A program made the translations under genes and the position numbers. The notes below the pieces were generated by a model that worked only from the letters and a program-made list of their open reading frames with translations, did not search any database and was not told where the DNA came from. Source: an uncultured Saprospiraceae bacterium (lineage in GTDB: Bacteria > Bacteroidota > Bacteroidia > Chitinophagales > Saprospiraceae). From it: a stretch of 28,878 bases of DNA. The stretch lies in contig CBDUIU010000001.1 of assembly GCA_965367335.1 (NCBI GenBank), forward strand, positions 1 through 28,878. Reading direction: 5' to 3'. Positions 106 through 26,999 of this stretch are shown here, piece by piece; positions within the stretch are counted from its first letter, which is position 1; every line of letters starts with the position of its first letter.

Positions 106-873
106 TTATCGCAAAATCTCTGTCCCTCCATTTTTCACCATATTACTCACATTACAGATATAAACCTGGGCACTACTTTTTTCTACCACTGAAAAGGCAT
201 TATCCAGCTTGGGAATCATGCCATCCCGGATGACCAATTGCTCCTTTAGCTCCCGATACGAGGTTTGATCAAGGAGGGGAATCAATGCACCTTGTTTATC
301 CAGCACACCTGGTTTGTCCAGGCATAAATAAAGGCGCACATTAAAATAGCCGCTCATGGTTTTAGCTAAGCAGGCAGCGATCGTGTCGGCATTTGTATTG
401 AGTAGCTGCCCTGAACCATCATGGGTAATCGCACAAAAGACAGGGCAAATATCCGCTTGCAACAATGCACCGATGGCCTTAGCATTTACCTGTTTAACAT
501 CCCCCGCAAAGCCATAGTCAACTTCTCCAACCGGTCGCTTTTCTGACAGAATACTATTGAGATCCGCTCCGCTAAGTCCGAGTGCGTTGATACCACAGGC
601 CTGCATTTCCGCGACCAGTGTTTTATTGATCAACCCAGCATAGACCATCGTCACGACCTCCATGGTAGCAGCATCAGTGATCCGACGACCCTGATGCATC
701 CGAATTGGGATATCCATTTTTTCGCTAAGTACCGAAGCCTGATTACCTCCACCATGTACAAGGATCTTTGAGCCCTTTACCTGGGCAAAGGTTTCGATGA
801 GCCTTTGGCGATTTTCAGCTACTTCGACGACGCGACCTCCAACTTTAACAATGCTTATTTGTGGTCTTTCCAT
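106..873 (-). CDS. argB: Acetylglutamate kinase
   Basis: IVKVGG, LVHGGG, GRRITD, and NTNADTIA motifs of the amino-acid kinase family; arg operon context. Confidence 0.95.
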   Translation of the reverse strand: MERPQISIVKVGGRVVEVAENRQRLIETFAQVKGSKILVHGGGNQASVLSEKMDIPIRMHQGRRITDAATMEVVTMVYAGLINKTLVAEMQACGINALGLSGADLNSILSEKRPVGEVDYGFAGDVKQVNAKAIGALLQADICPVFCAITHDGSGQLLNTNADTIAACLAKTMSGYFNVRLYLCLDKPGVLDKQGALIPLLDQTSYRELKEQLVIRDGMIPKLDNAFSVVEKSSAQVYICNVSNMVKNGGTEILR

Positions 874-912
874 GAGTATCTATTTTGATTAGCCTTAAAG
901 AGAACAACCCAT

Positions 913-1860
913 TCAAAGCAAGTCTTGTAAACAATGCCACAGCACTGATTGAGCTGCATAAGTTCGATTATTGGCTTGTTCTATGGCGAGTGAACGATTG
1001 CTATCTAACACTTTACCCGCAACCACAACATTACGGCGAACAGGCAAGCAGTGCATGAAATAGCCATTGTTAGTCCTGGCCATTTTTTCCGGGGTAATCA
1101 TCCAGGACGGATCGGTTGACTTAATTTTACCGTAATCAGAATAGCTTGACCAGTTTTTTACGTAAACAAAATCTGCATCCGCCAAAGCGGCGTTTTGGTC
1201 ATGGTAAACGGGAATATCTTTAGCAAATTCCGGAGCTAAGTCATACCCTTCCGGATGAGTGATGCTCAACTCCACTTTGGCCTGCCACATCCACTCCAGG
1301 AATGAATTTGCAACAGCTTGTGGAAGTGCTTTGGGATGAGGCGCCCAACTGAGTACAACCTTTGGCCGGTCTACTTTTTTAAACGTCTCAATGGTCAGCC
1401 AGTCAGCCAAAGATTGCAGAGGATGACGGATAGCCGATTCTAAACTAATTACCGGGACACTGGCAAACTCCTGAAACTTACGAATAATGCGATCCTGATA
1501 ATCTGATGTTTTATTGGTCAAAGAAGGAAAAGTCCGCACAGCGATAATGTCGGCATACTGGCTAATGACGGCAGCGGCCTCCCGAATGTGTTCGGCTTTA
1601 TCGCCATCCATAATAACTTCATCTTCGAATTCGAGTTGCCACCCTTGGGTTGCATTCATACTCATGACAGCAATTCCCAGGTTTTGGGCCGCACGTTCGG
1701 TACTCAGGCGGGTACGCAGACTGGGATTAAAGAAAACCATCACCAGGGTTTTATTTTTCCCAATTTGTTGTTGGGAAAATGGAGTAATTTTGAAGTCAAT
1801 GGCTTTCTTCAACAGTCCTTCTGGATTTTCGACGTCATTGAGTGTGATAAAATTTTTCAT
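913..1860 (-). CDS. argF: N-acylornithine carbamoyltransferase (ArgF' type; residue 89 = Ala suggests N-succinylornithine specificity)
   Basis: FFNPSLRTR carbamoyl-phosphate motif (SLRT rather than STRT), HPLQ, WAPHPKALPQAVANSF, YVKNWS and FMHCLPVRRN, all typical of AOTCase/SOTCase. Confidence 0.93.
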   Translation of the reverse strand: MKNFITLNDVENPEGLLKKAIDFKITPFSQQQIGKNKTLVMVFFNPSLRTRLSTERAAQNLGIAVMSMNATQGWQLEFEDEVIMDGDKAEHIREAAAVISQYADIIAVRTFPSLTNKTSDYQDRIIRKFQEFASVPVISLESAIRHPLQSLADWLTIETFKKVDRPKVVLSWAPHPKALPQAVANSFLEWMWQAKVELSITHPEGYDLAPEFAKDIPVYHDQNAALADADFVYVKNWSSYSDYGKIKSTDPSWMITPEKMARTNNGYFMHCLPVRRNVVVAGKVLDSNRSLAIEQANNRTYAAQSVLWHCLQDLL

Positions 1861-1946
1861 GGATTGTGGTATTGTGATAGCACAGTAAAAATTATTGTTA
1901 GATATAAGTAGTTCACGAAATTAAACCACTTACTGCATCAAAAAAC

Positions 1947-3095
1947 TCAAATCGTCACCGAAGAGAATTGGCGTACCGCTTGTGCAAGTTTTTCCAAAAA
2001 ACAATCGACTTCCTTTCTCTGGACATTGAGCGGCGGTAACAATCGCATTACGTTTGCGCTTTTAGCAGAGCCGGTGAAGACTTTCTCTTCGTATAATAAA
2101 TGCTTTCTAAGTTCCGCAACCGGCATCGGAAAAGACAGGCCGATCATAAGCCCCTGGCCACGCACTTCCGTTATCCCGGGAATGAGTTCCAATTGAGCTT
2201 TCAGATACTTTCCTAACTGATCCGCATGAGGCAATAAATTCTCTTTGTCCAAAACTTCCAACACAGCTAATCCGGCAGCACAAGCAAGGTGATGACCGCC
2301 GAATGTCGTACCCAGCAAACCATAGCTGGCTTTATAATCCGGATGAATGAGGACACCACCAATGGGATAACCATTCCCCATACCTTTAGCGACGGGAATC
2401 AAATCAGGTTCTATTCCGGCATGCTGAAAAGCAAAGAATGCGCCGGTACGACCATAACCGGATTGGACCTCATCCAGGATCAAAGCGGTACCATGTTTTC
2501 TACAAAGGGTTTGCAGGCTTTGTAAAAATTCTGGTTGAGGAATATAGATACCACCGATACCCTGCACCCCCTCGATGATCACCGCACAAACATCCTCCTG
2601 TTTCAGTACCTTTTCCACTCCTTCCAGATCATTCAAATCAAAAAATAGTGCCTCAAAACCCTTGTTCAAAGGCGCCTTTATTTTTTCATTATCGGTGATG
2701 TTTACCGCAGCGGAAGTCCGGCCATGAAACCCACGATTAAAGGCAACGATTTTGGTACGGCCATTTTTGAAAGACGCTAGTTTTAGCGCATTTTCATTGG
2801 CCTCAGCACCGGAGTTACAGAGAAACAACTGATAGCCATCCAATCCGGAAAGTTTACCTAGTTTTTCCGCCAACTCTATTTGCAAATTATTTTGCACGGA
2901 GTTCGAATAAAACACCAGTTTTTCTACCTGCTCTTTTATCCGTTTGACAAAATGTGGATGACTATGCCCGATTGAGATTACTGCATGTCCACCATAAAAA
3001 TCAAGATATTCCTGCCCGGACTCATCATAGACATGACAACCTTTGCCTCTGACCGGAGCTACGTTGAAAAGAGGGTATACATCGAAAAGTTTCAT
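1947..3095 (-). CDS. argD: Acetylornithine/succinylornithine aminotransferase (class III PLP)
   Basis: YLDFYGGHAV, NSGAEANE, FHGRT, EGVQG, LILDEVQSGYGRTG and AKGMGNG (PLP Lys). Confidence 0.93.
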   Translation of the reverse strand: MKLFDVYPLFNVAPVRGKGCHVYDESGQEYLDFYGGHAVISIGHSHPHFVKRIKEQVEKLVFYSNSVQNNLQIELAEKLGKLSGLDGYQLFLCNSGAEANENALKLASFKNGRTKIVAFNRGFHGRTSAAVNITDNEKIKAPLNKGFEALFFDLNDLEGVEKVLKQEDVCAVIIEGVQGIGGIYIPQPEFLQSLQTLCRKHGTALILDEVQSGYGRTGAFFAFQHAGIEPDLIPVAKGMGNGYPIGGVLIHPDYKASYGLLGTTFGGHHLACAAGLAVLEVLDKENLLPHADQLGKYLKAQLELIPGITEVRGQGLMIGLSFPMPVAELRKHLLYEEKVFTGSAKSANVMRLLPPLNVQRKEVDCFLEKLAQAVRQFSSVTI

Positions 3096-3139
3096 TTTTT
3101 TTAGTTTAATGATAAGTCCAAAAACCTGTTAGGGTAAAC

Positions 3140-4105
3140 TTAGTAAACGATAGACTTTAATTGAAGTCCCATCTTTTCATTCAGTCCGAACATTAAATTC
3201 ATGTTCTGTACGGCCTGTCCGGAAGCCCCTTTTAATAAATTATCGATCATGCTGATGACGAGCCATTGGTCATCAATTTTTTTGCCGTATAAAATACACT
3301 TGTTTGTATTGACGACTGACTTGAGTGAGGGGTTTGTGTCAGAAAGCCAAACGAAAAGTTCATCCTGATAAAATTCGCGATACAGCTCTTGCAGCTCCGC
3401 TTCACTTTGCGCCAACTTCGTATAAGCCGTAGCAAAAATACCTCGCGGAAAATCACCTCTGACCGGCAAGAAATGAATGGGCGCCACTTCCTCTGTTTGC
3501 AGTTGCTTCAAACTCTGCCGAATCTCATCCATATGTTGATGGCGAAAAGGTTTATAGACGGAAATATTGTTATTTCGCCAACTAAAATGAGTCGTCTCAA
3601 CCGGCTTCACACCTGCACCAGTAGACCCTGTCAACGCTTGCACATGAACAGGCTGACGCAATAGTTTTGCTTTAGCCAGAGGCAGCAAAGCCAGCTGGAT
3701 AGCGGTTGCAAAACAGCCACAATTAGCAATGCGGTTACTTTGTTGAATGGATCGACGATTAAGTTCTGGCAGGCCATAGACATAATTATGCTCGGGAGAT
3801 TTGAGTCGAAAATCACGGCTCAGGTCAATGACCTTGGTTGTAGACGGTACATTATTTTCTGCCAAAAAAGTTTTTGACTGACCGTGTCCCATACAGAGAA
3901 AAATCACATCTACCTCTACCGAAAATTGGTCACTAAAGTACAGGTCAATATCGCCCAGCAAATCCGGATGGACATCATGTAAATGTTTTCCGGCCTGGCT
4001 CCGGCTATGGACAAAACTCAGGTCCACTTGCGGATGTTGTAACAACAACCGAATAAGTTCGCCGCCGGTATAACCAGCCCCACCTATTATTCCTGCTCTG
4101 ATCAT
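3140..4105 (-). CDS. argC: N-acetyl-gamma-glutamyl-phosphate reductase
   Basis: GGAGYTGGEL Rossmann motif, IANCGCFATA catalytic Cys, GSTGAG and IDNLLKGASGQAVQNMN. Overlaps the argG stop by 4 nt. Confidence 0.96.
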   Translation of the reverse strand: MIRAGIIGGAGYTGGELIRLLLQHPQVDLSFVHSRSQAGKHLHDVHPDLLGDIDLYFSDQFSVEVDVIFLCMGHGQSKTFLAENNVPSTTKVIDLSRDFRLKSPEHNYVYGLPELNRRSIQQSNRIANCGCFATAIQLALLPLAKAKLLRQPVHVQALTGSTGAGVKPVETTHFSWRNNNISVYKPFRHQHMDEIRQSLKQLQTEEVAPIHFLPVRGDFPRGIFATAYTKLAQSEAELQELYREFYQDELFVWLSDTNPSLKSVVNTNKCILYGKKIDDQWLVISMIDNLLKGASGQAVQNMNLMFGLNEKMGLQLKSIVY

Positions 4106-5313
4106 AATACTTCCTCTTTTTTATTGGCAACTTGTTGAACCGATTGATAAATACGGTTCTGATTTGCCATGATTTTTATAAACCCTTTCGCCTCTTCTCC
4201 GGTCCAGGCAAGGTTCATTTCGCCATAGCTACCAAAACGAGATTGCATCAGATCATATGGAGATTTGATACCGATCAGTTCAAACCGATAAGGTAGCAAC
4301 CTGACTTCTACCGACCCGCTAACACTTTGTTGGGTATCTTCCAGAAAAACTTCAATGTTTCGCATCACCGGATCGAGAAATTGGCCTTCATGGAGTAACA
4401 TTCCATACCAATTCCCCAGTTGTTCTTTCCAGTATTGCTGCCATTTGGTTAGCACATGTTTTTCCAGTAATTGATGTGCTTTGATCAAAATCATGGGAGC
4501 GGCGGCTTCGAAACCGACCCGGCCTTTGATCCCGATAATCGTATCCCCTACATGTGTATCTCTTCCGATCGCATAGGAAGCGGCCAGTTGTTGCAGGGCT
4601 TTGATTAGTTCCGTTGGATGGCCATATTTCTCATCATTCAAGCCAACGGGTTGCCCTTTTTCAAACAATATATTTACAGTCATTTCCTTTTCCTGGCTTA
4701 ACTGACTAGGCCAGGCTTCTTCGGGCAAAGATTGGTGAGAAGTTAGCGTTTCTACGCCTCCGACACTGGTTCCCCAAAGCCCTTGATTGATGGAATATTT
4801 GGCTTTCTCCCAGTTAAAATCAAATCCCCTTTCCTGTAAGTACTTCACCTCAGCTTCCCGGGATAACTGCAAATCCCGGATAGGACTAATGATTTCCAGG
4901 TTCTGGCCGAGGATAAGAAATGCCAGGTCAAAACGAACCTGATCGTTACCTGCCCCCGTACTTCCATGCGCCACTGCATCCGCCTTGATCCCGTTAGCAA
5001 ATCTGGCAACTTCCATGGCCTGAAAAGCCCGTTCCGCAGAGACAGAAAGCGGGTAGGTTTGATTTCGTAACACGTTACCGTAAAGCAAAAAACGAATACA
5101 TTGATCATAATAGGTTTGGACGGCATCAACAACCTGGAAGCTTTTAGCGCCAAGGGCATAAGCGCGCTGTTCCATCTCGTGTAACTCTTGTTGAGAGAAA
5201 CCGCCCGTATTAACAGTAAGCGCATGCACCTCACAGTTTTGATCCTGGGAAAGGTATTGAATACAGAAGGAGGTGTCGAGGCCTCCGGAATATGCTAAGG
5301 CTACTTTTTTCAT
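4102..5313 (-). CDS. argG: Argininosuccinate synthase
   Basis: LAYSGGLDTS, AHGSTGAGNDQVRFD, YSINQGLWG and KGRVGFEA. Confidence 0.97.
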   Translation of the reverse strand: MKKVALAYSGGLDTSFCIQYLSQDQNCEVHALTVNTGGFSQQELHEMEQRAYALGAKSFQVVDAVQTYYDQCIRFLLYGNVLRNQTYPLSVSAERAFQAMEVARFANGIKADAVAHGSTGAGNDQVRFDLAFLILGQNLEIISPIRDLQLSREAEVKYLQERGFDFNWEKAKYSINQGLWGTSVGGVETLTSHQSLPEEAWPSQLSQEKEMTVNILFEKGQPVGLNDEKYGHPTELIKALQQLAASYAIGRDTHVGDTIIGIKGRVGFEAAAPMILIKAHQLLEKHVLTKWQQYWKEQLGNWYGMLLHEGQFLDPVMRNIEVFLEDTQQSVSGSVEVRLLPYRFELIGIKSPYDLMQSRFGSYGEMNLAWTGEEAKGFIKIMANQNRIYQSVQQVANKKEEVL

Positions 5314-5417
5314 GATAAATATTTGTATTAAAAAGGCTTCACCCTCAATTGTTAGAAATTTCTAATCCTTTAAACATCTGTGGTGATTTAATGTCAATCA
5401 GGAAAGGATGGTTAAAT

Positions 5418-6044
5418 TCATTTTGAATCCGTTTTATTTTCAACTACCCTGGGAGAATTTGAATTAATGACCTGGGAGGATTCAAACTCAGCTTTTGAAG
5501 GAGCAAGCATACCGGTACAAAGGCAGAGTTTCCTTTCGTTGCGTTGCAGGATATCATAGTTCGGGCAAGTTTGGCAGCCTTTCCAGAAGGTTTCATCCTG
5601 AGTTAATTCGGAAAAGGTAACCGGCCGGTAGCCAAGGTCAGAATTAATGCGCATAACGGCCAGGCTAGTGGTAATTCCAAAGACCCTGGCATTTGGGTAT
5701 TTATCTCGAGCCAATTTAAAGACTTTGGCCTTGATCGCTCTGGCTAATCCTTGTCCGCGAAATTTGCTGGCGACGATTAGCCCGGAATTAGCGACATAGC
5801 GAGAATGGCTCCAGGTTTCAATATAGCAGAAGCCGGCGAGCTCTCCGTCGGGAGAAAAAGCGATAACTGCTTTGCCCTCAGCAATCTTTTCTCTGATGTA
5901 TTCCGGAGAGCGACGCGCGATGCCAGTACCTCGTTCCTGAGCGGAGACCTCATACAATTTACAGAGTAATTCCGCACAGGGAAAGTGTACTGGCTGGGCA
6001 TTGTCTATGATAAAATTTGAATCCACTTTCTTAATTTTAAACAA
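5418..6044 (-). CDS. Bacteroidota-type GNAT N-acyl-glutamate synthase (ArgA role); true start may be GTG at 6026
   Basis: First gene of the arg operon. RGTGIARRSPEYI, acyl-CoA motif A (FRGQGLA), and a C-terminal CQTC...CLC cluster. Role inferred from position and family. Confidence 0.8.
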   Translation of the reverse strand: MFKIKKVDSNFIIDNAQPVHFPCAELLCKLYEVSAQERGTGIARRSPEYIREKIAEGKAVIAFSPDGELAGFCYIETWSHSRYVANSGLIVASKFRGQGLARAIKAKVFKLARDKYPNARVFGITTSLAVMRINSDLGYRPVTFSELTQDETFWKGCQTCPNYDILQRNERKLCLCTGMLAPSKAEFESSQVINSNSPRVVENKTDSK

Positions 6045-7864: not shown

Positions 7865-8545
7865 ATGAATGTACAAAAACTCAAAGAGGCGATCCAAGCG
7901 TACACCTCCTGGCTACAACAATCCAGGGACATTCCCAATCTTCACTGCTGGGAGGCACTCCATCACTGGCAAGTTAACTGGGACACTGAAGCTCCTGACC
8001 TGGCTGCCACCTATGATAAAAGCCTGCAAAGCCAGGAATCACGTCGTTTATGGAATCGGGAAAATTTTTTCCCAAAGGAAATGATGTTAAAGCTGATCCG
8101 ATCCCAACCGAATTTTTCCCGGCGAGCTTTTCAAGCACTATTTGACGAGGAAAAAGAAATCGACAACCGGATCAGTCTATTCAAGTTTTTTTGCGATGAG
8201 ATGCTAAAGGAATATAAAAGCAGTAAAAAAGTAAGTATTGAAAACAATCATTACCACGACAATAATGAGATGATCTTCTTATACCTGGCTTTCCAATTTC
8301 CTGAGCAATATACCCTGCTTCACTATCCATCTCTTCGAGCTTGTTTGGAAAAAGTAGGGAGTTTAAATCCACCTGGTCCATATGACCTGGGACGTTTTGT
8401 AAAGATCAGCCGGGCACTTTGGAAATGGCTACGGGAAGACGAGGTATGTATAAATGCGGTAAAGAAAAAAATAGAACCTACGGGTTTTTACCGAGAAAAC
8501 ACCCTGCTAATTGTCCATGATTTCTATACTTGGGTAGGCAAATAA
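7865..8545 (+). CDS. Hypothetical protein resembling N-terminal domains of McrB-like/HNH restriction proteins
   Basis: 226-aa ORF with a TAATTTTG element at 7826-7833. Motifs WEALHHWQVNWD, FPKEM, LFDE, NHYH and YLAFQFPEQY recalled from such domains; not verified. Confidence 0.7.
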   Translation: MNVQKLKEAIQAYTSWLQQSRDIPNLHCWEALHHWQVNWDTEAPDLAATYDKSLQSQESRRLWNRENFFPKEMMLKLIRSQPNFSRRAFQALFDEEKEIDNRISLFKFFCDEMLKEYKSSKKVSIENNHYHDNNEMIFLYLAFQFPEQYTLLHYPSLRACLEKVGSLNPPGPYDLGRFVKISRALWKWLREDEVCINAVKKKIEPTGFYRENTLLIVHDFYTWVGK

Positions 8546-8765: not shown

Positions 8766-10454
8766 ATGAGTCAGTTTCAAAACTTCAAACCAAGCTATCC
8801 TCTAAATAAGCGCTATAAAAAACCAGTAGCTTATTTTTGTATGGAATACGGTATAGACCAAGCCCTGAAGATTTACTCCGGTGGTCTGGGTTATCTTGCC
8901 GGATCGCATATGCGTTCCGCGTTCACTTTACAGCAAAATTTAGTTGGTATCGGTATTTTATGGAAATATGGGTACTACGATCAGCTCCGTGGTAAAGATA
9001 AATCCATGGAGGCTCAATTTATAGAAAAGAACTATAGTTACCTGGAAGATACCGGGATCGTTTTTGACATTATGGTCAATAAGCATCCGGTAAAAGTAAA
9101 AGCTTTCTATCTGGCACCCGAGATCTTTGGAACAGCACCTTTGTTCCTTTTATCTACTGATTTACCGGAAAATGATTGGCTGGCTCAAACGATCTGCCAC
9201 CGCTTATATGATTCTAATGTATCCACCAAGATCGCTCAGTGTATGCTACTGGGAGTTGGAGGTGCAAAATTGTTAGACATCATTGGCTTTAACCCGGAAG
9301 CTTACCACATGAATGAGGCGCACGCTTTACCAGCAGCCTTTTATTTGTATCAGAAATATCGCGACCTGGAAAAGGTTCGTGAAAAAATGGTGTTTACTAC
9401 GCATACACCGGTAGAAGCGGGTAATGAAAAACATGATATCCGTCTTTTAGATGGCATGGACTATTTTAGTGGTTTACCAACAGAGGATGTTAAACAACTG
9501 GTTGGTATTCAAGGTGAAGTGTTCAATCATACTTTGATTGCTTTACGAATGTCTCACTTAGCCAATGGAGTGTCAAAAATACATGGAGAAGTATCCCGTC
9601 AGATGTGGGGAGGCTATAATGACATCTGCCCGATTACCCATATCACCAATGCCCAGAATCATAAATACTGGTCGGATCAGCCATTGGATAAGGCATTAGC
9701 AAAAGGATTGGATAAGAAATTCCTGGATCGTAAGACTGTTCTGAAAGAAAGGTTGTTTGAAGTCGTTGCAGATCAAACGGGTAAAATGTTTAACCCCAAA
9801 GTACTGACTGTTGTCTGGGCACGCCGCTTCGCGGGCTATAAACGTGCAGACATACTAACAACAGATATGCAGCGTTTCGAAAAGCTGATCAAAAACACGA
9901 AGCACCCTATCCAGATCATTTGGGCGGGCAAACCCTACCCTACTGATTATGAGGCTGTCAGCACCTTCAACGGTTTAGTCCATTTAAGCAAAAGATATTC
10001 GAATCTTGCGGTATTAACCGGTTACGAGCTTCGCCTATCCAAACAACTTAAGCAAGGTTCTGACATCTGGTTGAATACGCCTCGTGCTCCCCGTGAAGCT
10101 TCTGGTACCAGTGGCATGACTGCAGCAATGAATGCAAGTGTCAACTTCTCCATCAATGATGGCTGGGTCGCTGAGTTTGCCCAGCATGGCACCAATGCCT
10201 TTGTAACGCCCCTGGCCAACCCGGCCTGGCCAGAATTTCAACAAGATGCGTACGATCGAGATAATCTTTTTGATGTCTTAGAAGATGAGATTCTCCCATT
10301 GTACTATGAACGACCACAAGAGTGGTTAGAATTAGTAAAGAACAGCATGCGCCAGGTAGTTCCGTTTTTTGATTCGGATCGAATGGCAGCAGCTTATTAC
10401 GATACCTTATATGGAAAAAAAGAAGTGGAGGCAGCAGCAAAAGCTAGTCGATAG
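8766..10454 (+). CDS. glgP: Alpha-glucan phosphorylase family protein (GT35), short 562-aa form, PLP Lys replaced by Thr
   Basis: VAYFCMEYG, YSGGLGYLAG, HMNEAH, FTTHTP, ARRFAGYKRA and EASGTSGMTAAMN. Confidence 0.88.
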   Translation: MSQFQNFKPSYPLNKRYKKPVAYFCMEYGIDQALKIYSGGLGYLAGSHMRSAFTLQQNLVGIGILWKYGYYDQLRGKDKSMEAQFIEKNYSYLEDTGIVFDIMVNKHPVKVKAFYLAPEIFGTAPLFLLSTDLPENDWLAQTICHRLYDSNVSTKIAQCMLLGVGGAKLLDIIGFNPEAYHMNEAHALPAAFYLYQKYRDLEKVREKMVFTTHTPVEAGNEKHDIRLLDGMDYFSGLPTEDVKQLVGIQGEVFNHTLIALRMSHLANGVSKIHGEVSRQMWGGYNDICPITHITNAQNHKYWSDQPLDKALAKGLDKKFLDRKTVLKERLFEVVADQTGKMFNPKVLTVVWARRFAGYKRADILTTDMQRFEKLIKNTKHPIQIIWAGKPYPTDYEAVSTFNGLVHLSKRYSNLAVLTGYELRLSKQLKQGSDIWLNTPRAPREASGTSGMTAAMNASVNFSINDGWVAEFAQHGTNAFVTPLANPAWPEFQQDAYDRDNLFDVLEDEILPLYYERPQEWLELVKNSMRQVVPFFDSDRMAAAYYDTLYGKKEVEAAAKASR

Positions 10455-10473: not shown

Positions 10474-10508
10474 AAAAAACGTCGCTCTTTATTAGGGCGG
10501 CGTTTTTT
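10474..10508. terminator. Intrinsic terminator after glgP (bidirectional shape)
   Basis: AAAAAACGTCGCTCT-ttatt-AGGGCGGCGTTTTTT. Confidence 0.8.
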
Positions 10509-10686: not shown

Positions 10687-11724
10687 CTAAGCGGTAGCGG
10701 CAGCGGCTGAGCTTTTTACTTTAGCAGACTTCACCGTCTTAATGATCCGAGCAGTTACTAAGTAAGGATTAGCATTAGAAGCCGGGCGACGATCCTCCAG
10801 GTATCCAATCCAAGTTTGTGATACATTCAATGGAATACGGATAGAGGCACCACGGTCAGAAACACCATAGCTAAATTGATCAATAGATTGTGTTTCGTGA
10901 GCACCGGTCAGTCGCTGATCATTATTAGATCCATATACCGCAATATGCTCATCGTGAACTGGACGGAAAGCTTCACAAATACTCATAAACAATTCTTTCC
11001 CTCCTTCTTCACGCATCGGCGTATTGGAAAAATTAACGTGCATACCTGAGCCGTTCCAATCACCTTTAACTGGCTTAGGCTGGATATCTACATTAACACC
11101 AAACTCTTCACATATCCGGTATAATAAATAACGAGATAAGATCAAGTCATCAGAAGCTTTCTTAGGTCCTTTGCCAAAACATTGGTACTCCCATTGTCCT
11201 AACATTACTTCTGCATTGATACCTGTAATACCTAAACCAGCATCCAGACATGCATCCATATGTGCTTCGACGATATCGCGGCCAGCAACTTTTGTATTAC
11301 CTACACCGCAGTAGTAGGGTCCTTGTGGAGCTGGATAACCATCAACAGGAAAGCCTAATGGCTTGCCAGTCTCACCGGTCATTACATACTCTTGTTCAAA
11401 ACCAAACCAGAAGTCGTCATTGCCGTCTTCAATCAATGCCCGATGGTTGGTAGCATGAGGTGTACCGTCTGCATTAAATACTTCGCAAACAACCAGGTAA
11501 CCATTGATCCGAGCTGAATCGGGGTAAACTGCAACCGGCTTTAACAAACAATCAGAAGAGTGGCCTTCCGCTTGCTGAGTAGAGCTGCCGTCAAATGACC
11601 AATCGGGCAATACGTCCAATTCACCATCGTAGTTATCAAATGCCAAAACTTACGTTTTGCTTCTTAAGTTAGCTTCAGGTTTGTAACCGTCTAGCCAGAT
11701 GTACTCAAATTTGTACTTTGCCAT
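10687..11724 (-). pseudogene. glnA: Glutamine synthetase type II (GSII-like) interrupted by an in-frame TAA at codon 25 (real nonsense allele or sequence error)
   Basis: ATG 11724 gives MAKYKFEYIWLDGYKPEANLRSKT, then TAA (11652-11650), then VLAFD...PDWSFDGSST in the same frame. Downstream GS motifs are intact: FGFEQEY, GINAEVMLGQWEYQ, DWNGSGMH, RLTGAHET, DRGASIRIP, YLEDRRPASN. Confidence 0.85.
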
Positions 11725-11943
11725 TGTAATCAAGAATTTATTAATTTATAAAAAAGCTTTTTTCCCTATTTATAAGGCTGTGCCTTTGTTATTATGGATT
11801 TTTATGCTTCGCTTTGCGAACCATTTTATGAGTTTTAACCTTAGGGGGTTCGCGCCTGAAAAATTTGATGTTTCAGGATTTGCTAGTCCGACAACGTGAA
11901 CCTCGCGTTAGCCCTGTTAAGTTAAAGCCCCTTTTTCACCCTT

Positions 11944-13041
11944 CTAAAAAGCATACATCGCTGCCATAATAAAAGCCGGAGAGGTTCCCGTAGCTTCGCC
12001 GTCCGCATCAAAGAAGACATCCTTGTCCGCAATATCTATCCGAAATTCCGGAATGATCGTTAACTGATCTATTTTGATATTTGCAGATAAGGTCAAATCA
12101 ATAATGCTATTGTCAGCAACGCCAGAGATCAAGCCATCGTCATCACCGATATATTCACCTCGAACTCCAAACAATAAGCTTTCGCTTACGGTATAATTAG
12201 CGTATAATGCTGCACCAAACCAGGACGCATTGTCCCCTTCATCCGGATTCAGGGTTTTTACCGTAGTATTTAAGCCTAAGCCAAAAGATTCCGTAGCCTG
12301 AAAAGTCGCTGTCAAATCAATTTGATTTTCCATGATATCTCCTGCTATTTCACTCTCTTCAGCTTTACCTCCGATAAAGTTTAAATAAGCACCTAGCTTA
12401 TCATCACTATAAGACAACTGAGCACCAAAGTGTTTACCTGGTACAACATCCATCTTAGCATCGGTATCATTAAAGACGCCGAGCATAATGCCAAATTTTT
12501 CAGACACCGCATAGTCTGCTTTCAGACCGGTGTGGTAAAAAGGTCCATTTGAAAACATGTACGAGGTACTGTAGTTAATGTTATCCGGTGCATCAATTAC
12601 TTCATAACCGACATGGGTACCATAGTTTCCAAAAGTAAATGTCAAGTTCTCTACTGGTGTATACGTAACGTATAACTGTTTGATAGCAGAGAGGGTCGTT
12701 CCAGCATAACCATTGGCCACTTCAGCACGAGGGCCCACGGCAATATCTGCTTTGAATCCTACTTTACCTTCTTTAGCAAAAACGACATTCGCCATGCCCA
12801 GGGAAAAAGAATTATGCGCTTCGGTAAAACTTGTAGGAAACGCTTCTTTGTTGGTAAAATAAGCATAGTAACCATCGACAAATCCGCTAATGGTAAATGA
12901 AGGTTCAACTTCAACTTCAGTTTGTTCAGCCACCGTTGTGGTTGAAGGAACGAGGGGCTCGGTGCCCACATCCGCCATGTCCTGCGCGTTCAATACATTT
13001 AACGATAACAGTAACAAGGCAATAAGTGTAAACTTTTGCAT
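11944..13041 (-). CDS. Outer-membrane beta-barrel (putative porin, BBP2-like)
   Basis: N-terminal signal peptide, SGFVDGYY, alternating amphipathic strands, C-terminal aromatic (MYAF); lies between amt and glnA. Confidence 0.78.
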   Translation of the reverse strand: MQKFTLIALLLLSLNVLNAQDMADVGTEPLVPSTTTVAEQTEVEVEPSFTISGFVDGYYAYFTNKEAFPTSFTEAHNSFSLGMANVVFAKEGKVGFKADIAVGPRAEVANGYAGTTLSAIKQLYVTYTPVENLTFTFGNYGTHVGYEVIDAPDNINYSTSYMFSNGPFYHTGLKADYAVSEKFGIMLGVFNDTDAKMDVVPGKHFGAQLSYSDDKLGAYLNFIGGKAEESEIAGDIMENQIDLTATFQATESFGLGLNTTVKTLNPDEGDNASWFGAALYANYTVSESLLFGVRGEYIGDDDGLISGVADNSIIDLTLSANIKIDQLTIIPEFRIDIADKDVFFDADGEATGTSPAFIMAAMYAF

Positions 13042-13261
13042 AAGACAAGCAGTTTGGAGCCAAAGAGTCTTTGATAAAAAATCAATTTCAAATTAGCTCA
13101 GCGTTAAAAAATCTGATTTTTAAAACACCGGAGTAGATCCGGATGGTTGAAATCAGAAAGACCGCTTGCTTACACAAATAAGGTATTCAGTATTTCAAAT
13201 ACGACCTATTTTGCGTAACTTTGTTTTGCGATTCAGGAAGGCGGTCTTTCCGTTTTCTTGA

Positions 13262-13304
13262 AGAAAAGGGGCTCCTGGCATAGTTAGCGCTAACCAGGAG
13301 TCTC
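13262..13304 (-). terminator. Intrinsic terminator after amt
   Basis: mRNA GAGACUCCUGG...CCAGGAGCCCC followed by UUUUCUU. Confidence 0.65.
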
Positions 13305-13350
13305 CTTATTTGTACAATGTGCAAGTACTAAAACCTAATCTCGAATGCTA

Positions 13351-14601
13351 TTATTCGATGGCTAGGTTGTAGGACGGGGCACTCTCCAATTCTGCGTAGG
13401 CAGCCATGTCATGCTCGGAGTGATCCAAGCCCCTGGCTTCTTCTTCGTCAGATACGCGAATTCCGACGGTTACTTTTAACACGTACATCACCGCGAAAGC
13501 AAAGATGAAAGTAAAAGCACCAATGGCCAATGTACCATAGAGCTGCACCCACAACTGAGCTAACCCCGCTTTAGCACCGAACAATCCTACGGCCAGGGTT
13601 CCCCATATTCCGCATACCAGGTGCACAGAAGTAGCACCTACCGGATCATCCAGTTTAAGGATTTTGTCAAAGAAAACTACTGAAAACGGTATAATTACAC
13701 CGGCGACCAAACCGATGATAATGGAAACACCAGGGGTCATTAAATCTGCACCCGCTGTGATTCCGACCAAGCCTCCCAGGATGCCATTCAACACCATGGA
13801 AAGGTCGTGAGTTTTAAATAATAAATAGCTGGCGAAAAAAGCACCTATAGCACCTGCCGCAGCTGACAGACAGGTCGTTACAAATACCAATGAAACAGCT
13901 GAGGGGTCTCCAGACAACACGGAACCTCCGTTAAAACCAAACCAGCCAAACCATAGTAAAAAAACACCCATAGCAGCCAAAGGCATGTTATGGCCCGGGA
14001 TCGGATGGATTGTCCCATCTTTATCATATTTACCATTCCGTGCACCTAACAATACAATCGCAGCCAAAGCTCCCCAGCCGCCAACAGCGTGGACCAGGGT
14101 AGAGCCAGCAAAATCGTAAAATCCATTTGCATCTAACCATCCGGCTCCCCATTTCCACATTCCGGTAATGGGATAACTGATGGAAACAAATAATATACAG
14201 AATATTAAAAACGGCCCAAGTTTGATCCGCTCCGCTACCGCGCCGGAAACAATAGTACAACATGTAGCCGCAAACATCGCTTGGAAAATAAAGTCAGTGT
14301 AATAGGTATAAGCTCCATCAGCATAAGCGATAGCTTCCCCTTCGGGAAGTGTCAGGCCAAAGCCATCAAAACCGAAAAAAGCGTTGATCGGCTCATCCGG
14401 ATACATCAGATTAAACCCTACAAAATAATAGGTCAACAACCCGATCGCGATAATCATCACGTTTTTAAATAGTATATTGACCGTATTCTTTTTTCTGACA
14501 AATCCAGCTTCCAGAGTAGAGAACCCCAGGTGCATGATAAAAACTAGTACTGTTGCTATAAGCAACCATAGATTATTAGCAGTAAACAATGCCTCATTCA
14601 T
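13351..14601 (-). CDS. amtB: Ammonium transporter
   Basis: FQAMFAAT, IVSGAVAER, DFAGSTLVH (first His), LWFGWFGFNGGS, NGILGGLVGITA and DDPVGATSVH (second His). Confidence 0.96.
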   Translation of the reverse strand: MNEALFTANNLWLLIATVLVFIMHLGFSTLEAGFVRKKNTVNILFKNVMIIAIGLLTYYFVGFNLMYPDEPINAFFGFDGFGLTLPEGEAIAYADGAYTYYTDFIFQAMFAATCCTIVSGAVAERIKLGPFLIFCILFVSISYPITGMWKWGAGWLDANGFYDFAGSTLVHAVGGWGALAAIVLLGARNGKYDKDGTIHPIPGHNMPLAAMGVFLLWFGWFGFNGGSVLSGDPSAVSLVFVTTCLSAAAGAIGAFFASYLLFKTHDLSMVLNGILGGLVGITAGADLMTPGVSIIIGLVAGVIIPFSVVFFDKILKLDDPVGATSVHLVCGIWGTLAVGLFGAKAGLAQLWVQLYGTLAIGAFTFIFAFAVMYVLKVTVGIRVSDEEEARGLDHSEHDMAAYAELESAPSYNLAIE

Positions 14602-14758
14602 ATCAATTAGACGTTAGTAGTTTGAAAATTGGTTTTAAATTGTCTTGGTTATTTGATTAAGGCAGTGTCAAATCTTTTATGGCAATAACTGATCGTTAAT
14701 ATTAGTAAGTGATACTATATATTTAAAAATAGTATTATGTGTTAATAATTATTCTTTT

Positions 14759-15097
14759 TTAGATCGCAGCAGCATTTTTTTCTGCCGTACGGATTCTGGT
14801 AACACTTTGAACATCAAGGACGGTAATTTTACCATCACCAACTTCTCCGGTACGGCCCGAATTCACAATTGCATCAATAATCGAATCCACTTTATCATTA
14901 TCGGTTAAAATATCCAATTGTAAACGAGCGATAAAAGTCGTATCATAGACGGAGCCGCGATAGACACGTTTTTCACCTTTTTGCAGACCAAATCCTTTTA
15001 CATCTTTGAGTGTAAAAAAATTTACTCCAATCTCGGCAAGTGCATCACGAACGGCATCAAAACGAGAAAGACGAATAATCGCTTCTATTTTTTTCAT
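14759..15097 (-). CDS. P-II nitrogen regulator (GlnB/GlnK family), 112 aa
   Basis: Start MKKIEAIIR at 15097 gives the canonical 112 aa. T-loop YRGSVY with Tyr51, plus GEVGDGKI and RIRT. Adjacent to amt, i.e. GlnK-like context. Confidence 0.95.
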   Translation of the reverse strand: MKKIEAIIRLSRFDAVRDALAEIGVNFFTLKDVKGFGLQKGEKRVYRGSVYDTTFIARLQLDILTDNDKVDSIIDAIVNSGRTGEVGDGKITVLDVQSVTRIRTAEKNAAAI

Positions 15098-15159
15098 TTT
15101 TCTTATTTTTAGGTCTTCTATTTCAGAAATGATTAAAGATTTATTTGCATTTGTTAATA

Positions 15160-15191
15160 CAAAAGTAATTGACTCGCACACTTAGATTAAA
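15160..15191 (-). promoter_or_regulatory. Promoter of the P-II/amt cluster
   Basis: TACTTTTG (15167-15160) with TTTA 20 nt upstream (one mismatch to -33 TTTG). Confidence 0.6.
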
Positions 15192-15276: not shown

Positions 15277-16824
15277 ATGACCTTCAGCTCACCTACAGAT
15301 CAAACTTTTACCTTAATAAAGTCTTTAACGAAGGCAGAAAAGCGCAATTTCAAATTATACGCGACCCGAATCCAGAGTAAAGAGGAGCTTAAATTTGTGC
15401 GGCTTTTTGAAGTTATGGATAAGATGACGGATTATCATGAGGCGGATATGCTAAAACGACTTCCAGAAGTTAAACGCCGTCAATTACCTAATCTCAAGCG
15501 CCACCTTTACAAGCAGATCCTCTCCAGCCTGCGGATTATTCACATTCAAAAAAACGCGGATATTGAAATTCGCGAGCAAATTGATTTCGCCCGGATCTTA
15601 TACGGCAAGGGACTCTATTTGCAAAGCCTAAAACTACTGGAGCGTATCAAAGGGCTTGCTATTGAAAATCACTTAGATCTATTACTGTTAGAAATCCTGG
15701 AGTTCCAAAAGTTGATTGAAGAACGACATATTACCCGTAGCCGACAGATAAAAGGAAAGGTGGAAAACTTATTAGAGGAGGCAGCACAACGAAGTGAAAT
15801 CATTCGAAATAGTTGTCATTTATCAAACCTCAAGATCAAGATCCATGGTTGGTATATTCAAATCGGACATGTAAAGAATGAAAAAGACCGATTGGTCGTG
15901 GAGGAATATTTTCGCTCCAATATCCCTAAAGTCCGGGTAGAGTTATTAACCTTTTTTGAAAAAATTTACTACTTCCAATCCAATGTTTGGTATCATTATA
16001 TCATGCTGGATTTTGAATCCTGTTATACCTCCGCAAAAGAATGGGTAGACTTATTTCAGCTGGACCCCAAGATGCAATCCGAAGACCCCGATCTCTATAT
16101 GCGGGGACTGCACTATTTACTGACCTCAGCTTTTAATTTGCAGGACAAAATTCGTTTTGCCCAAGGCTTAAATCTATTTGAATCCTTTTATCAAAAACAC
16201 CATAAATCTTTTCCAACGATCACTCAAACGATGGCTTTCCTTTACCTGGATACTGCCCGTTTGAATGCTTTATTCTTAGAAGGTACTTTTGAAAAAGGCC
16301 TACCCTTAGTTCCTAAGATCCTCAAGCAGATAAAGCTTTACGAAAAATACCTGGATCCACACCGGATAATGGTTTTTTACTATAAATTCGCTTTTCTCTA
16401 TATCGGTTGTGGTCGTTACAAAGAAGCGATTGATTATCTGAATATCATTATCGATTTAAAAATTGGTCATTTACGGGAAGACATTCAATCCTATGCAAGG
16501 TTATTGTTTATAATTGCCCATTTTGAGTTGGGCCATTATGATTTAATGGAGTATTTATTAAGTTCTACCCAACGCTATCTGGAGAAATTGTCGGAACTAA
16601 ATAAAGTACAGAAAAGGACCTTGAAGTTTTTCCGACAATTACTTAAGCATCCTCATTCAAAGTGGTCCGAGATTTTTGTCCAATTCAGAGACCAATTGAA
16701 AATACTCCAGGAAGACCCCTACGAGATGAGGGCTTTTCTTTATCTGGACATTCTCACCTGGGCGCAAAGTAAGGTGGAAAAAAAATCATTGGCCCAGGTC
16801 ATACGAAATCGAAATTTAAGATAA
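15277..16824 (+). CDS. Hypothetical all-helical protein, TPR-like repeats, possible N-terminal DNA-binding region
   Basis: 515-aa ORF divergent from P-II. TPR-like segments such as FARILYGKGLYLQSLKLLERIK and FLYIGCGRYKEAIDYLNII; basic helix KRRQLPNLKRHLYKQIL. Confidence 0.8.
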   Translation: MTFSSPTDQTFTLIKSLTKAEKRNFKLYATRIQSKEELKFVRLFEVMDKMTDYHEADMLKRLPEVKRRQLPNLKRHLYKQILSSLRIIHIQKNADIEIREQIDFARILYGKGLYLQSLKLLERIKGLAIENHLDLLLLEILEFQKLIEERHITRSRQIKGKVENLLEEAAQRSEIIRNSCHLSNLKIKIHGWYIQIGHVKNEKDRLVVEEYFRSNIPKVRVELLTFFEKIYYFQSNVWYHYIMLDFESCYTSAKEWVDLFQLDPKMQSEDPDLYMRGLHYLLTSAFNLQDKIRFAQGLNLFESFYQKHHKSFPTITQTMAFLYLDTARLNALFLEGTFEKGLPLVPKILKQIKLYEKYLDPHRIMVFYYKFAFLYIGCGRYKEAIDYLNIIIDLKIGHLREDIQSYARLLFIIAHFELGHYDLMEYLLSSTQRYLEKLSELNKVQKRTLKFFRQLLKHPHSKWSEIFVQFRDQLKILQEDPYEMRAFLYLDILTWAQSKVEKKSLAQVIRNRNLR

Positions 16825-17619: not shown

Positions 17620-18111
17620 ATGAAAAAGATTGCGCTGTTCTCTTTTTGCTTATCTCTCTTTTTACTAGCCTGTCAAGCTGATTCTGTCAATAGCAACTGG
17701 AAACCACTAGACCTGTTATCTTATGGAGTCCCAATAACGTTAATGGCACCTGATAGTGCAGCAGTAACTGTAGACGATTTGCTAGGCCAAAAAGATATTA
17801 CCATTGAAGGGGAAAACTTCTCCGTTCAATTATTTGTTTACGATGCCACCACTACCAATGCCGCAGAGGTGAAAAATGAAAAACTGAGAGAAGTCCAGGA
17901 GCAAAAGTATTTCTCAAAAGTTATAAAAGATGAGCCTACTGGTTTTATTTACGAAACGGTAATTGACTCTACTTACAAAAGTTACCGCTTTTACCACATC
18001 AAGATCAAAGGGGATAAAGAATTTTTGTTTCAGTCGGGATTACGAGGACAATTTTCGCAGGAACAAGCGGAAGCAACCTATCAGGCGGTGAGCGAGCTGA
18101 TAAAGAGATAG
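17620..18111 (+). CDS. Hypothetical lipoprotein
   Basis: MKK + hydrophobic stretch + lipobox LLAC. Confidence 0.8.
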   Translation: MKKIALFSFCLSLFLLACQADSVNSNWKPLDLLSYGVPITLMAPDSAAVTVDDLLGQKDITIEGENFSVQLFVYDATTTNAAEVKNEKLREVQEQKYFSKVIKDEPTGFIYETVIDSTYKSYRFYHIKIKGDKEFLFQSGLRGQFSQEQAEATYQAVSELIKR

Positions 18112-25226: not shown

Positions 25227-25255
25227 AACAGGGGCATCACGTCCCTGTTTTTTTT
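25227..25255 (+). terminator. Intrinsic terminator
   Basis: AACAGGGG-catcacg-TCCCTGTT-TTTTTT. Confidence 0.75.
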
Positions 25256-26999
25256 ATTTTAGTTTTATCTTTTTTATGTGACTCCCTACCTTAAATACTT
25301 TCTTTTCAGTTTGCAGGATGGCTTTCTCCGATCGACAAACGATCTTGTCCATTCCTTCACAATCCGGAACTGCCATACGGATTTTACCAAATTTCATGAG
25401 TGCAAAGGAATCCTTAGCACCACCTTCAAAATGCAAACAGTCCGGACGATCCATTTCAAAGGAATAATTCACCTTACCCTTTTCATCAATTAATTCTACT
25501 TGAAAGTCTCGATAATTTACCAAATTTTTCTCTGGTACTCCATAAACTTTATCTACTGTTTTTATCTCTAAATTATTTTGTTGCAAAGTCAACTCCATTA
25601 AAACAACTGCCTCGTAGTCAAACATATTTTCTTTTTGGTCTTGCAAGCGGATGGAGCGCTGCGGGTCTTGCATTGGCGGTAATCGATCATAATAACTTTG
25701 AATAATTGACCGGCAAGTTCGCTGAAATTTACGAACCTGACGATCGCCATCATCCTGCATAATACACACTCCTTGTTCGGCTCGATAAAAACGACTCCCG
25801 TCTAGATCAATAAAAACAAAACAACTGTCTGGGCTGTATCCATTTTGTTCATTATAAGCAAGACATTCAGCCTCCGTTTGAAACATAACAGCCTGCTCCG
25901 GCATATACCATTGCTGCCCGCTATAACTAACAATTGTCGAACAACTAGGATCATCAAAATTATTCAACTGATTAAATTCCTGACAGCCAGCCAAACTCGT
26001 AAACATATTAGAGCCACCTTCCGGAGCTTCAAAACAAGCACAGCCTTCATATTCATCACTAAGGTTAAAAACAGTATGTGCCGTTTCATGGACCGCTGTA
26101 CCCAGGTTGTAAGACTCACTTGTAAACACATTGTGAGAGAGAAATCGAATATTACCTAACATATAGGCTCCATCACTATAAGGCTGCCGGTGTAATAAAC
26201 CAAACGCATCAATTCCGAAGATAAGGCTATCTTTCATAAAAGGAGGAAAGCGATCCGGATTTCCATAATCCTGAGATAAGGCATAGCCATCCGTTTCGGT
26301 TTGGGTGTAATAAAAACGCCAACGATTTTTATTTGATGAGATTACATTGTTAAGATGATATCCTTGATATATCAAGGTGTCCAGGTCTTCTAGAAATTGT
26401 TGCCAATCTCCATTATAGTCTGTATCTGGGAAGAAGCAGATATTAATCGTATGTTGGAGCGATTCCTCCGTCGCACCATAGAGCAAGATTTTATCTTGAG
26501 GCCAGGGAGAATCGCCTGCATCAAACCCTGCCATTCGCTCACTAATTTCACCGTTTTGATTGTACACCCGAAATAAATAAACAACATGGGTTTTAGCCGG
26601 AAAACCTTTGGTATACGTGTAGCTTAGTTTTTCAGTTTGTAAAGTGGCGGGAATCTCCCAGGTTTTGACTAATCCCCACTGACCGGTAGAACGCCGTCTT
26701 TTGGAAGGTAGCCCCTCATGATTTCGAAATAATTCATATTCAAATAACAATAATTCCACTTTGGTAATTCCAATTTTTTCTTCCGACATTACCTCAAAGG
26801 TAACCGCTTCCCCATTAGCCGGATGCATGGGATGATGTCGCCAGTATTTAAAATTGGCTGTATTTGAAATTTTCAGTACCTGTCCGGTGGTATCCCGATC
26901 TACTTGGGGCGGCACAACAATTACCGGTCGATTAGAGTCGGGTGTTCGACAGCTTTGCAGCGTAAAAATAAGCAGGAAAAGAAAGGCAAGTTGATTCAT
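25254..26999 (-). CDS. Lipoprotein zinc metallopeptidase, M64-like (HEXXH...DEY)
   Basis: Lipobox LQSC; AVHETAHTVFNLSDEY at 26090-26049; Cys-rich C-terminal half. Confidence 0.72.
   Translation of the reverse strand: MNQLAFLFLLIFTLQSCRTPDSNRPVIVVPPQVDRDTTGQVLKISNTANFKYWRHHPMHPANGEAVTFEVMSEEKIGITKVELLLFEYELFRNHEGLPSKRRRSTGQWGLVKTWEIPATLQTEKLSYTYTKGFPAKTHVVYLFRVYNQNGEISERMAGFDAGDSPWPQDKILLYGATEESLQHTINICFFPDTDYNGDWQQFLEDLDTLIYQGYHLNNVISSNKNRWRFYYTQTETDGYALSQDYGNPDRFPPFMKDSLIFGIDAFGLLHRQPYSDGAYMLGNIRFLSHNVFTSESYNLGTAVHETAHTVFNLSDEYEGCACFEAPEGGSNMFTSLAGCQEFNQLNNFDDPSCSTIVSYSGQQWYMPEQAVMFQTEAECLAYNEQNGYSPDSCFVFIDLDGSRFYRAEQGVCIMQDDGDRQVRKFQRTCRSIIQSYYDRLPPMQDPQRSIRLQDQKENMFDYEAVVLMELTLQQNNLEIKTVDKVYGVPEKNLVNYRDFQVELIDEKGKVNYSFEMDRPDCLHFEGGAKDSFALMKFGKIRMAVPDCEGMDKIVCRSEKAILQTEKKVFKVGSHIKKIKLK

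Follow-up and report, generated by a model that had tools for sequence, protein, structure and literature searches.

PLP has long been considered indispensable for alpha-glucan phosphorylases. This textbook mechanism is challenged by a cofactor-free branch of the family, as already shown in 2024-2026 for an archaeal enzyme. In the phosphorylases of the Methanococcales the Schiff-base lysine is reported to be replaced by Thr, and sometimes by Ser (Gonzalez-Ordenes et al., bioRxiv 10.1101/2024.09.29.615707; FEBS J 2025, doi 10.1111/febs.70182). According to the preprint, the recombinant GP of M. maripaludis (MmGP) is a monomer of about 55 kDa that phosphorolyses glycogen with a Km for Pi of 0.74 mM, and it was found to be PLP-free by absorbance, by fluorescence, by a cyanohydrin assay and by MS, where a peptide map of 89% coverage revealed neither PLP nor any other modification anywhere (bioRxiv 10.1101/2024.09.29.615707). 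Its authors propose that a second orthophosphate, bound in the conserved PLP-phosphate site, serves as acid/base, and they ascribe the filled pyridoxal pocket to "Phe26"; the activity of MmGP is modest, and the "second phosphate" mechanism was proposed from modelling (bioRxiv 10.1101/2024.09.29.615707).

A phylogeny published more recently (PMC13324651; Nat Commun 2026) splits the prokaryotic enzymes into GP1 and GP2. As described there, members of GP1 clade VIII are about 550 aa long, the lysine is changed to Thr, Gly or Ala in Flavobacteria, Chitinophagia, Cytophagia, Akkermansia and Gastranaerophilales, and the lysine was lost where clade VIII divides into its subclades (PMC13324651). The distribution of the lysine-less branch among bacteria has thereby already been reported, and the gene described here adds a Saprospiraceae-like example to it. 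No assay of any bacterial lysine-less phosphorylase was found in the searchable literature. The statement, in the original prediction, that no biochemical study of such proteins existed is nevertheless out of date, as the biochemistry of MmGP has been published (bioRxiv 10.1101/2024.09.29.615707).

The gene is located in a window of 28,878 nucleotides (the whole stretch of DNA that was analysed), which is part of the MAG of a Saprospiraceae-like member of the Bacteroidota, 79% complete and in 878 contigs. On translation the ORF proved to be intact and 562 aa long, as had been claimed (Table 1). It is quite likely, judged from the analyses presented below, that it encodes an active PLP-independent alpha-1,4-glucan (glycogen) phosphorylase of the ~550-aa lysine-less GP1/TIGR02094 branch, the same branch that is found in the Methanococcales. 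The 562-aa protein scores 438.2 bits against TIGR02094 ("alpha-glucan family phosphorylase"; cut-off 191.7) and 58.8 bits against PF00343 (cut-off 27). Its AF2 model has a pLDDT of 95 and a pTM of 0.93, and when this model was used as a Foldseek query the best 50 matches were all glycogen, maltodextrin or starch phosphorylases, i.e., the predicted fold is that of a GT-B phosphorylase.

Glycogen synthases and phosphorylases have the GT-B fold and the layout of the active site in common. It is therefore conceivable that the protein is a different GT-B enzyme, e.g., a nucleotide-sugar-dependent glucan synthase that accommodates the nucleotide in the old PLP pocket, and a weak match that covers nearly the whole of the GlgA model (TIGR02095, E 1.5e-8, profile positions 99-472 of 477) points in that direction. 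However, this match amounts to 33.8 bits where the cut-off for GlgA (GT5, TIGR02095) is 328.45, a true GlgA is encoded beside GlgC on contig C109 of the same genome (448 bits for glgA, 439 bits for glgC), the fold matches are without exception to phosphorylases, the phosphate-binding Arg-Arg...Lys motif is unchanged, and the characterised relative of the clade is a phosphorylase. A switch to another GT-B reaction is accordingly highly improbable.

Table 1. Features of the phosphorylase locus (positions in the window)
Feature	Position	Strand	Basis or remark
Predicted short alpha-glucan (glycogen) phosphorylase gene, lysine-less GP1 branch	8766..10454	+	562 aa, TIGR02094, PF00343
GGLG substrate (glucose-1-phosphate) motif, G39-G-L-G42	8880..8891	+	Near-invariant in lysine-less and lysine-bearing relatives
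His213 (in FTTHTP), counterpart of H316, a substrate contact in S. copri GP	9402..9404	+	Alignment; invariant in both groups
A352-RRFAGYKR-A361, phosphate/substrate-binding motif	9819..9848	+	Alignment; conserved to 90% or more in either group
Ser425, clade-diagnostic; Ala in most lysine-bearing relatives	10038..10040	+	Ser in 29/29 orthologues
Lys429 (AAG), Lys throughout the lysine-less clade and in no lysine-bearing relative	10050..10052	+	22/22 vs 0/118
GT35 cofactor motif EASGTSGM-T-AAMN, E444 onward, with Thr452 replacing the Schiff-base Lys	10095..10133	+	Translation, alignment
Thr452 codon ACT	10119..10121	+	Sequence
Terminator-like inverted repeat with A6/T6 flanks	10474..10508	.	15-nt arms, 87% complementary, 5-nt loop

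The nearest solved structure is the GP of Segatella copri (ScGP; PDB 9l6i, 20yr), with an E value of 4e-78 and a TMq of 0.89. ScGP EASGTSGEKAEMN aligned over window-protein EASGTSGMTAAMN, and this alignment places T452 exactly on the PLP lysine of ScGP (EASGTSGEK609AEMN). The PLP lysine of ScGP is Lys609, and its substrate contacts are H316, R507, R508 and K513 (PMC12912991). Because Thr452 is aligned to this published PLP lysine it stands exactly at the Schiff-base position, and the replacement described in the original prediction, i.e., Thr at the place of the PLP lysine in EASGTSGM-T-AAMN, is borne out by both the translation and the alignment. The phosphate-binding motif ARRFAGYKRA, said to be retained, is indeed present at residues 352-361, and its R353, R354 and K359 correspond to R507, R508 and K513 of ScGP. 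G39-G42, H213, R353, R354, Y358, K359, R360, E444, T448 and S449 are invariant residues common to lysine-less and lysine-bearing relatives. The substrate- and phosphate-binding residues expected of a GT35 enzyme (GGLG, the His of HTP, Arg-Arg...Lys, and the Glu, Thr and Ser of EASGTSG) are thus all found in the protein, and the Schiff-base Lys of the classical PLP-dependent members is not. As far as can be judged from the alignment, the 562-aa protein is a GT35 homologue that is not a classical PLP-dependent member, since Thr452 aligns with Lys609 of ScGP.

The window protein has the GGLG, HTP and RRF..YKR motifs and the core of the EASGTSG motif in common with ScGP, and differs from it in several respects. 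ScGP is 852 aa long and forms pentamers, it carries PLP at Lys609, and it has Val at the place of Lys429. From the aligned ranges, the window protein is without the N-terminal DUF3417 part, an internal insert and the C-terminal beta-sheet domain of ScGP. The original prediction had regarded a length about 250 aa below the usual as anomalous; the shortness as such is real, with some 290 aa fewer than in ScGP, whereas the anomaly is not, as short enzymes of this kind are a known size class.

The best 120 homologues (62-71% identity) come from Saprospiraceae, Lewinellaceae, Cyclobacteriaceae and others, and a regex count at residue 452 gave 113 Thr, 5 Ser and 1 Ala among them. By alignment the lone regex miss reads MT as well, and Thr, Ser or Ala was found in 120/121 close homologues. 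Close orthologues (E below 1e-189) are carried by 30 genomes besides the window MAG among 301 Bacteroidota species genomes sampled, and the aligned loci read from these species genomes had Ser425, Lys429 and Thr452 in 29/29 cases, one of them with Ser452. A Lys in close orthologues, which the original prediction had named as the mark of an isolate-specific lesion, is therefore not what is seen. A paralogue on contig C768 of the same MAG, 54% identical and of matching G+C, has also kept EASGTSGMT. An isolate-specific lesion or a sequencing error was rejected on these grounds, Thr being clade-wide in homologues, orthologues and paralogue. It is correct that a change from AAR to ACT takes two base changes, as had been argued against a single base error, and the argument is moot because the change to Thr is ancient and clade-wide.

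In nearly all pairs compared dS is saturated, already between orthologues that are 87% identical in protein (dN 0.09), and dN ranges from 0.09 to 0.4. An omega of about 0.055 was obtained in the two pairs with a computable dS, and is not a precise value; the evidence for selection is that dN is far below a saturated dS. By this measure purifying selection on the phosphorylase gene is strong, and Thr (or Ser) at residue 452 is fixed across the clade, as the original prediction had suggested should be checked.

The genome context is informative as to function. Because glgA and glgC are adjacent in the genome, the organism would make glycogen via ADP-glucose. A GH13 branching enzyme (TIGR01515) above cut-off was not found in the 79%-complete MAG. 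It may be mentioned that a lysine-bearing GP could lie in the part of the genome that is not assembled. Besides the window gene and the C768 paralogue no further GT35 gene was found in the MAG as assembled, and no GP of the TIGR02093 type was found in this genome or in 81 sampled genomes of the class. Each of the 30 further genomes in which the short type was found, among the 301 Bacteroidota genomes, had one match and no long lysine-bearing GP; in this sample of the phylum no genome combined the short Thr-type with the long GP1 type that bears the lysine, as one would expect if the short enzyme served as the working phosphorylase.

The replacement of the lysine is not accounted for by a loss of PLP synthesis or of vitamin B6 metabolism, because each of the four complete relatives with a Thr-type GP that were checked has pdxJ, and because an aminotransferase encoded in the same window (positions 1947-3095) is of the PLP type. 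Neither pdxJ nor pdxS was found in the 79%-complete MAG, and this is not read as absence because the complete relatives have pdxJ. Taken together, the gene and its orthologues provide genome-level support for the lysine-less enzyme as the working glycogen phosphorylase of many Bacteroidota, because it is the sole GT35 gene found, is under strong selection, and occurs where both the GlgC-GlgA pathway and the synthesis of PLP are intact.

The same data bear on whether the protein could be a catalytically dead pseudoenzyme that is kept as a glycogen-binding or regulatory protein. Such a role would fit the loss of a residue long held to be essential and the position of the gene outside any glycogen operon. 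It is difficult to reconcile with the invariance of every catalytic-site residue except the lysine, with the strong purifying selection, and with the finding that the protein is the only GT35 homologue detected in glycogen-making genomes of the class. In addition, activity has been reported for a related enzyme from the Methanococcales (bioRxiv 10.1101/2024.09.29.615707). There is consequently very little to commend a pseudoenzyme, and an active phosphorylase is by far the better reading.

To place the protein among its relatives, 150 of these were collected in a HMMER search of 1.84 billion representatives, and a DNA-level scan of species genomes supplied named members for a second tree. In 154 full-core aligned sequences residue 452 was Lys in 119 and Thr, Ser, Gly or Ala in 35. 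Two maximum-likelihood trees, both made by quick search without bootstraps (the first with LG+C20), placed every lysine-less protein on the same side of a branch whose SH-aLRT is 99-100, and the first tree needed only two changes of state at residue 452. The tree neighbours of the lysine-less proteins are short (~530-555 aa) lysine-bearing enzymes. These nearest lysine-bearing relatives, short TIGR02094 phosphorylases such as P0135, P0136 and P0165, have the same architecture of about 530-555 aa, and differ in that Lys452 is kept and that other residues are found at eight diagnostic positions.

Members of the lysine-less group were found in Chitinophagales, Cytophagales, Saprospiraceae, Flavobacteriaceae, Campylobacterales, Melainabacteria/Gastranaerophilales/Vampirovibrio, many Patescibacteria, and four Methanococcales. 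The trees thus reproduce the published split (PMC13324651), and add members from Campylobacterota, Patescibacteria and Melainabacteria. In the second tree the four GPs of Methanococcales (Methanocaldococcus and "Methanococci") are nested within the lysine-less clade, and their sister group, with a support of 100, is the Thr group of Campylobacterota + Bacteroidota that holds the window protein. With Thr452 in an enzyme of 562 aa, and a position inside the clade that includes the Methanococcales enzymes, the window protein has the characters of lysine-less GP1 clade VIII, and no difference in kind was seen between it and the lysine-less subclade as far as that is described in PMC13324651.

MmGP itself is absent from the trees, where Methanocaldococcus and other Methanococci loci stand in for it, and the link to the characterised enzyme runs via these other Methanococcales sequences and the published statement on that order. 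The Methanococcales GPs carry the same EASGTSGMT and LKQGSDIW motifs, and the GP of Methanocaldococcus sp. 28A is 47% identical to the window protein over 531 aa. At this level of identity the transfer of function from the Methanococcales is good, although not certain. MmGP and the window protein are alike in being short enzymes (~520-560 aa) with Thr for the Schiff-base Lys in EASGTSGM-T, and the Methanococcales orthologues of MmGP share Ser425 and Lys429 with the window protein as well as the GSH(M/F)RS variant of the GDHLKS segment. The two differ in that MmGP is archaeal, whereas the window protein is bacterial and about 40 aa longer. The counterpart of MmGP Phe26 is probably F24 or Y28, by an inferred match of the numbering; both residues are common in lysine-bearing relatives too, and do not discriminate between the clades.

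Eight alignment columns separate the lysine-less from the lysine-bearing proteins, namely Y71, F121, V350, W351, P390, E421, S425 and K429, for which the lysine-bearing counterparts are mostly, in the same order, F/T; a gap or varied residue; G; F; A; D; A/G; and V/T. The sharpest of these is column 429, where Lys was found in all of the 22 diverse lysine-less representatives and in none of the 118 lysine-bearing ones in the HMMER representative set, the latter having Val, Thr or Ile. The Methanococci loci were found by peptide patterns that include LK.G.D.W, so that their Lys429 is partly selected for, and the unbiased counts are those of the HMMER representative set and of the 29 species-genome orthologues. 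In the AF2 model residues 425 and 429 are four apart on one face of a helix (422-431) that precedes the strand-loop-helix bearing EASGTSGMT. A nested lineage of Patescibacteria (P0241 and the Giovannonibacteria locus L052) has Lys452 together with Gln429 and Met425, and keeps the remaining diagnostic residues. Because all three positions revert in this lineage, residues 425, 429 and 452 would have switched as a unit in two separate events. The covariation of Ser425 and Lys429 is mentioned neither in the accessible text of the MmGP preprint nor in the phylogeny section of PMC13324651, and the coupling of Ser425, Lys429 and Thr452, as it appears from the alignments, may be new.

An invariant lysine at precisely the proteins that lack Lys452, and never otherwise, raises the question whether the enzyme still uses PLP, bound either non-covalently or as a Schiff base to a relocated Lys429. 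In line with this, the reported contacts of the PLP phosphate are conserved, and the four complete Thr-type relatives with pdxJ can make PLP. Against it, MmGP was reported to be PLP-free by four methods (bioRxiv 10.1101/2024.09.29.615707), and the Methanococcales orthologues that could be read have the same Lys429. Furthermore, Lys429 is seven residues into helix 422-431 in the model, and is probably too far down to reach the position of the aldehyde. Retention of PLP is for these reasons improbable. Of the four readings offered in the original prediction, i.e., non-covalent binding of PLP, PLP-independent chemistry, a different GT-B reaction and a pseudoenzyme, it is thus PLP-independent chemistry that is favoured by the biochemistry of MmGP and by membership of the same lysine-less clade, and the other three are disfavoured.

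For a PLP-independent enzyme the following scheme can be envisaged. The window phosphorylase most likely mobilises glycogen made by GlgC and GlgA according to glycogen(n) + Pi -> glycogen(n-1) + glucose-1-phosphate, and a group other than PLP would act as acid/base in the place of the PLP 5'-phosphate. The Ser425/Lys429 pair, beside Thr452, would fill or neutralise the space left by the Lys-PLP adduct; Lys429 might be hydrogen-bonded to Ser425 and to Thr/Ser452 and so make up for the space or the charge of the lost lysine, its placement relative to the PLP pocket being derived from helix positions only. It is tempting to speculate, although rather doubtful, that loss of the lysine is obligatorily paired with a relocated Lys429 and that this is the mechanistic key to cofactor-free catalysis. 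If Lys429 were more than space-filling these enzymes would be "lysine-relocated" phosphorylases, in which Lys429 might hold the proposed cofactor phosphate or relay protons in place of the PLP 5'-phosphate, and such a role would refine the published two-phosphate model in a way that is open to test. In either case the strictly co-varying Ser425/Lys429 pair provides concrete targets for mutation in the study of catalysis without PLP.

The neighbours of the phosphorylase gene are an MFS transporter, a 226-aa ORF and a convergent nitrogen-assimilation cluster, none of which is glycogen-related. The gene had been credited with a promoter of its own. The sigma-70 consensus is unsuited to Bacteroidota, and a scan for promoters of this type gave 6 sites, where 6.0 were expected from shuffles. 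The gene had also been credited with its own terminator. A simple terminator scan gave no match at the place in question; an inverted-repeat search did find a predicted terminator-like hairpin there, which together with its T6 lies 20 nt 3' of the stop codon, between the phosphorylase gene and the convergent downstream gene.

The genome carries a second short phosphorylase without the Schiff-base lysine, in which the motif EASGTSGMT and Lys429 are both present too. The contig on which it lies is 2.5 kb long and has a matching G+C content of 0.40. Most sampled relatives have one copy, and two short copies were found in at least one of them (G301).

Within the lysine-less clade, one nested lineage, represented by protein P0241 and by locus L052, combines a lysine in the Schiff-base position with Gln429 and Met425. 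From these residues it looks as if the PLP lysine was regained and the compensating pair (425/429) was reversed in step. Alternatively, the lysine of this lineage may be the ancestral state, kept there, which would imply several independent losses. Among the lysine-bearing GP1 relatives, giant multidomain proteins of 1400–1530 aa are common (P0145, P0149, P0152, P0160, P0162, and others), the phosphorylase core forming the middle or the C-terminus; glycogen phosphorylases above 1000 aa are mentioned in a passage of PMC13324651 as well.

Residues 147–546 of the window protein match the glycogen synthase (GlgA) profile TIGR02095 weakly (E 1.5e-8), yet over almost the whole profile length, and two close homologues (P0058 and P0114) have a precomputed PF08323 (GT5) hit. 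The GT-B folds of glycogen synthase and phosphorylase are known kin, which explains both matches, and this kinship shows more clearly in the trimmed-down short form. The genome encodes the ADP-glucose pathway (see table). In the MAG, which is 79% complete, no GH13 branching enzyme scored above the TIGR01515 cut-off, and contigs C699 and C687 carry candidate GH13 genes.

Features of the window, its genome (G000) and the nested lysine-bearing lineage
Feature	Location	Strand	Remarks
glgA and glgC	C109: 4408-5829 and 5952-7109	+	adjacent; loci L005, L125
Lysine-less paralogue, 547 aa	C768, L004:820-2463	+	54% identical to window phosphorylase
Lysine-carrying lineage, member beside P0241	L052:3001-4626		Candidatus Giovannonibacteria MAG
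Arginine-biosynthesis row	window 106-6044	-	
226-aa ORF	window 7865-8545	+	no Pfam match
Nitrogen-assimilation cluster	window 10687-15181	-	convergent with phosphorylase gene
Glutamine-synthetase-like ORF, 319 aa (short)	within 10687-15181	-	TTG start; Gln-synt_N and Gln-synt_C matches partial only
OmpL-like beta-barrel porin (BBP2)	within 10687-15181	-	
Ammonium transporter and P-II protein	within 10687-15181	-	
515-aa ORF	window 15277-16824	+	no Pfam match
163-aa ORF	window 17620-18111	+	no Pfam match
581-aa ORF	window 25254-26999	-	no Pfam match

The arginine row comprises an amino-acid kinase, a carbamoyltransferase, a class-III aminotransferase, a semialdehyde dehydrogenase and argininosuccinate synthase; a GNAT acetyltransferase comes after them. 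The 226-aa ORF lies directly 5' of the phosphorylase gene and shares its strand.
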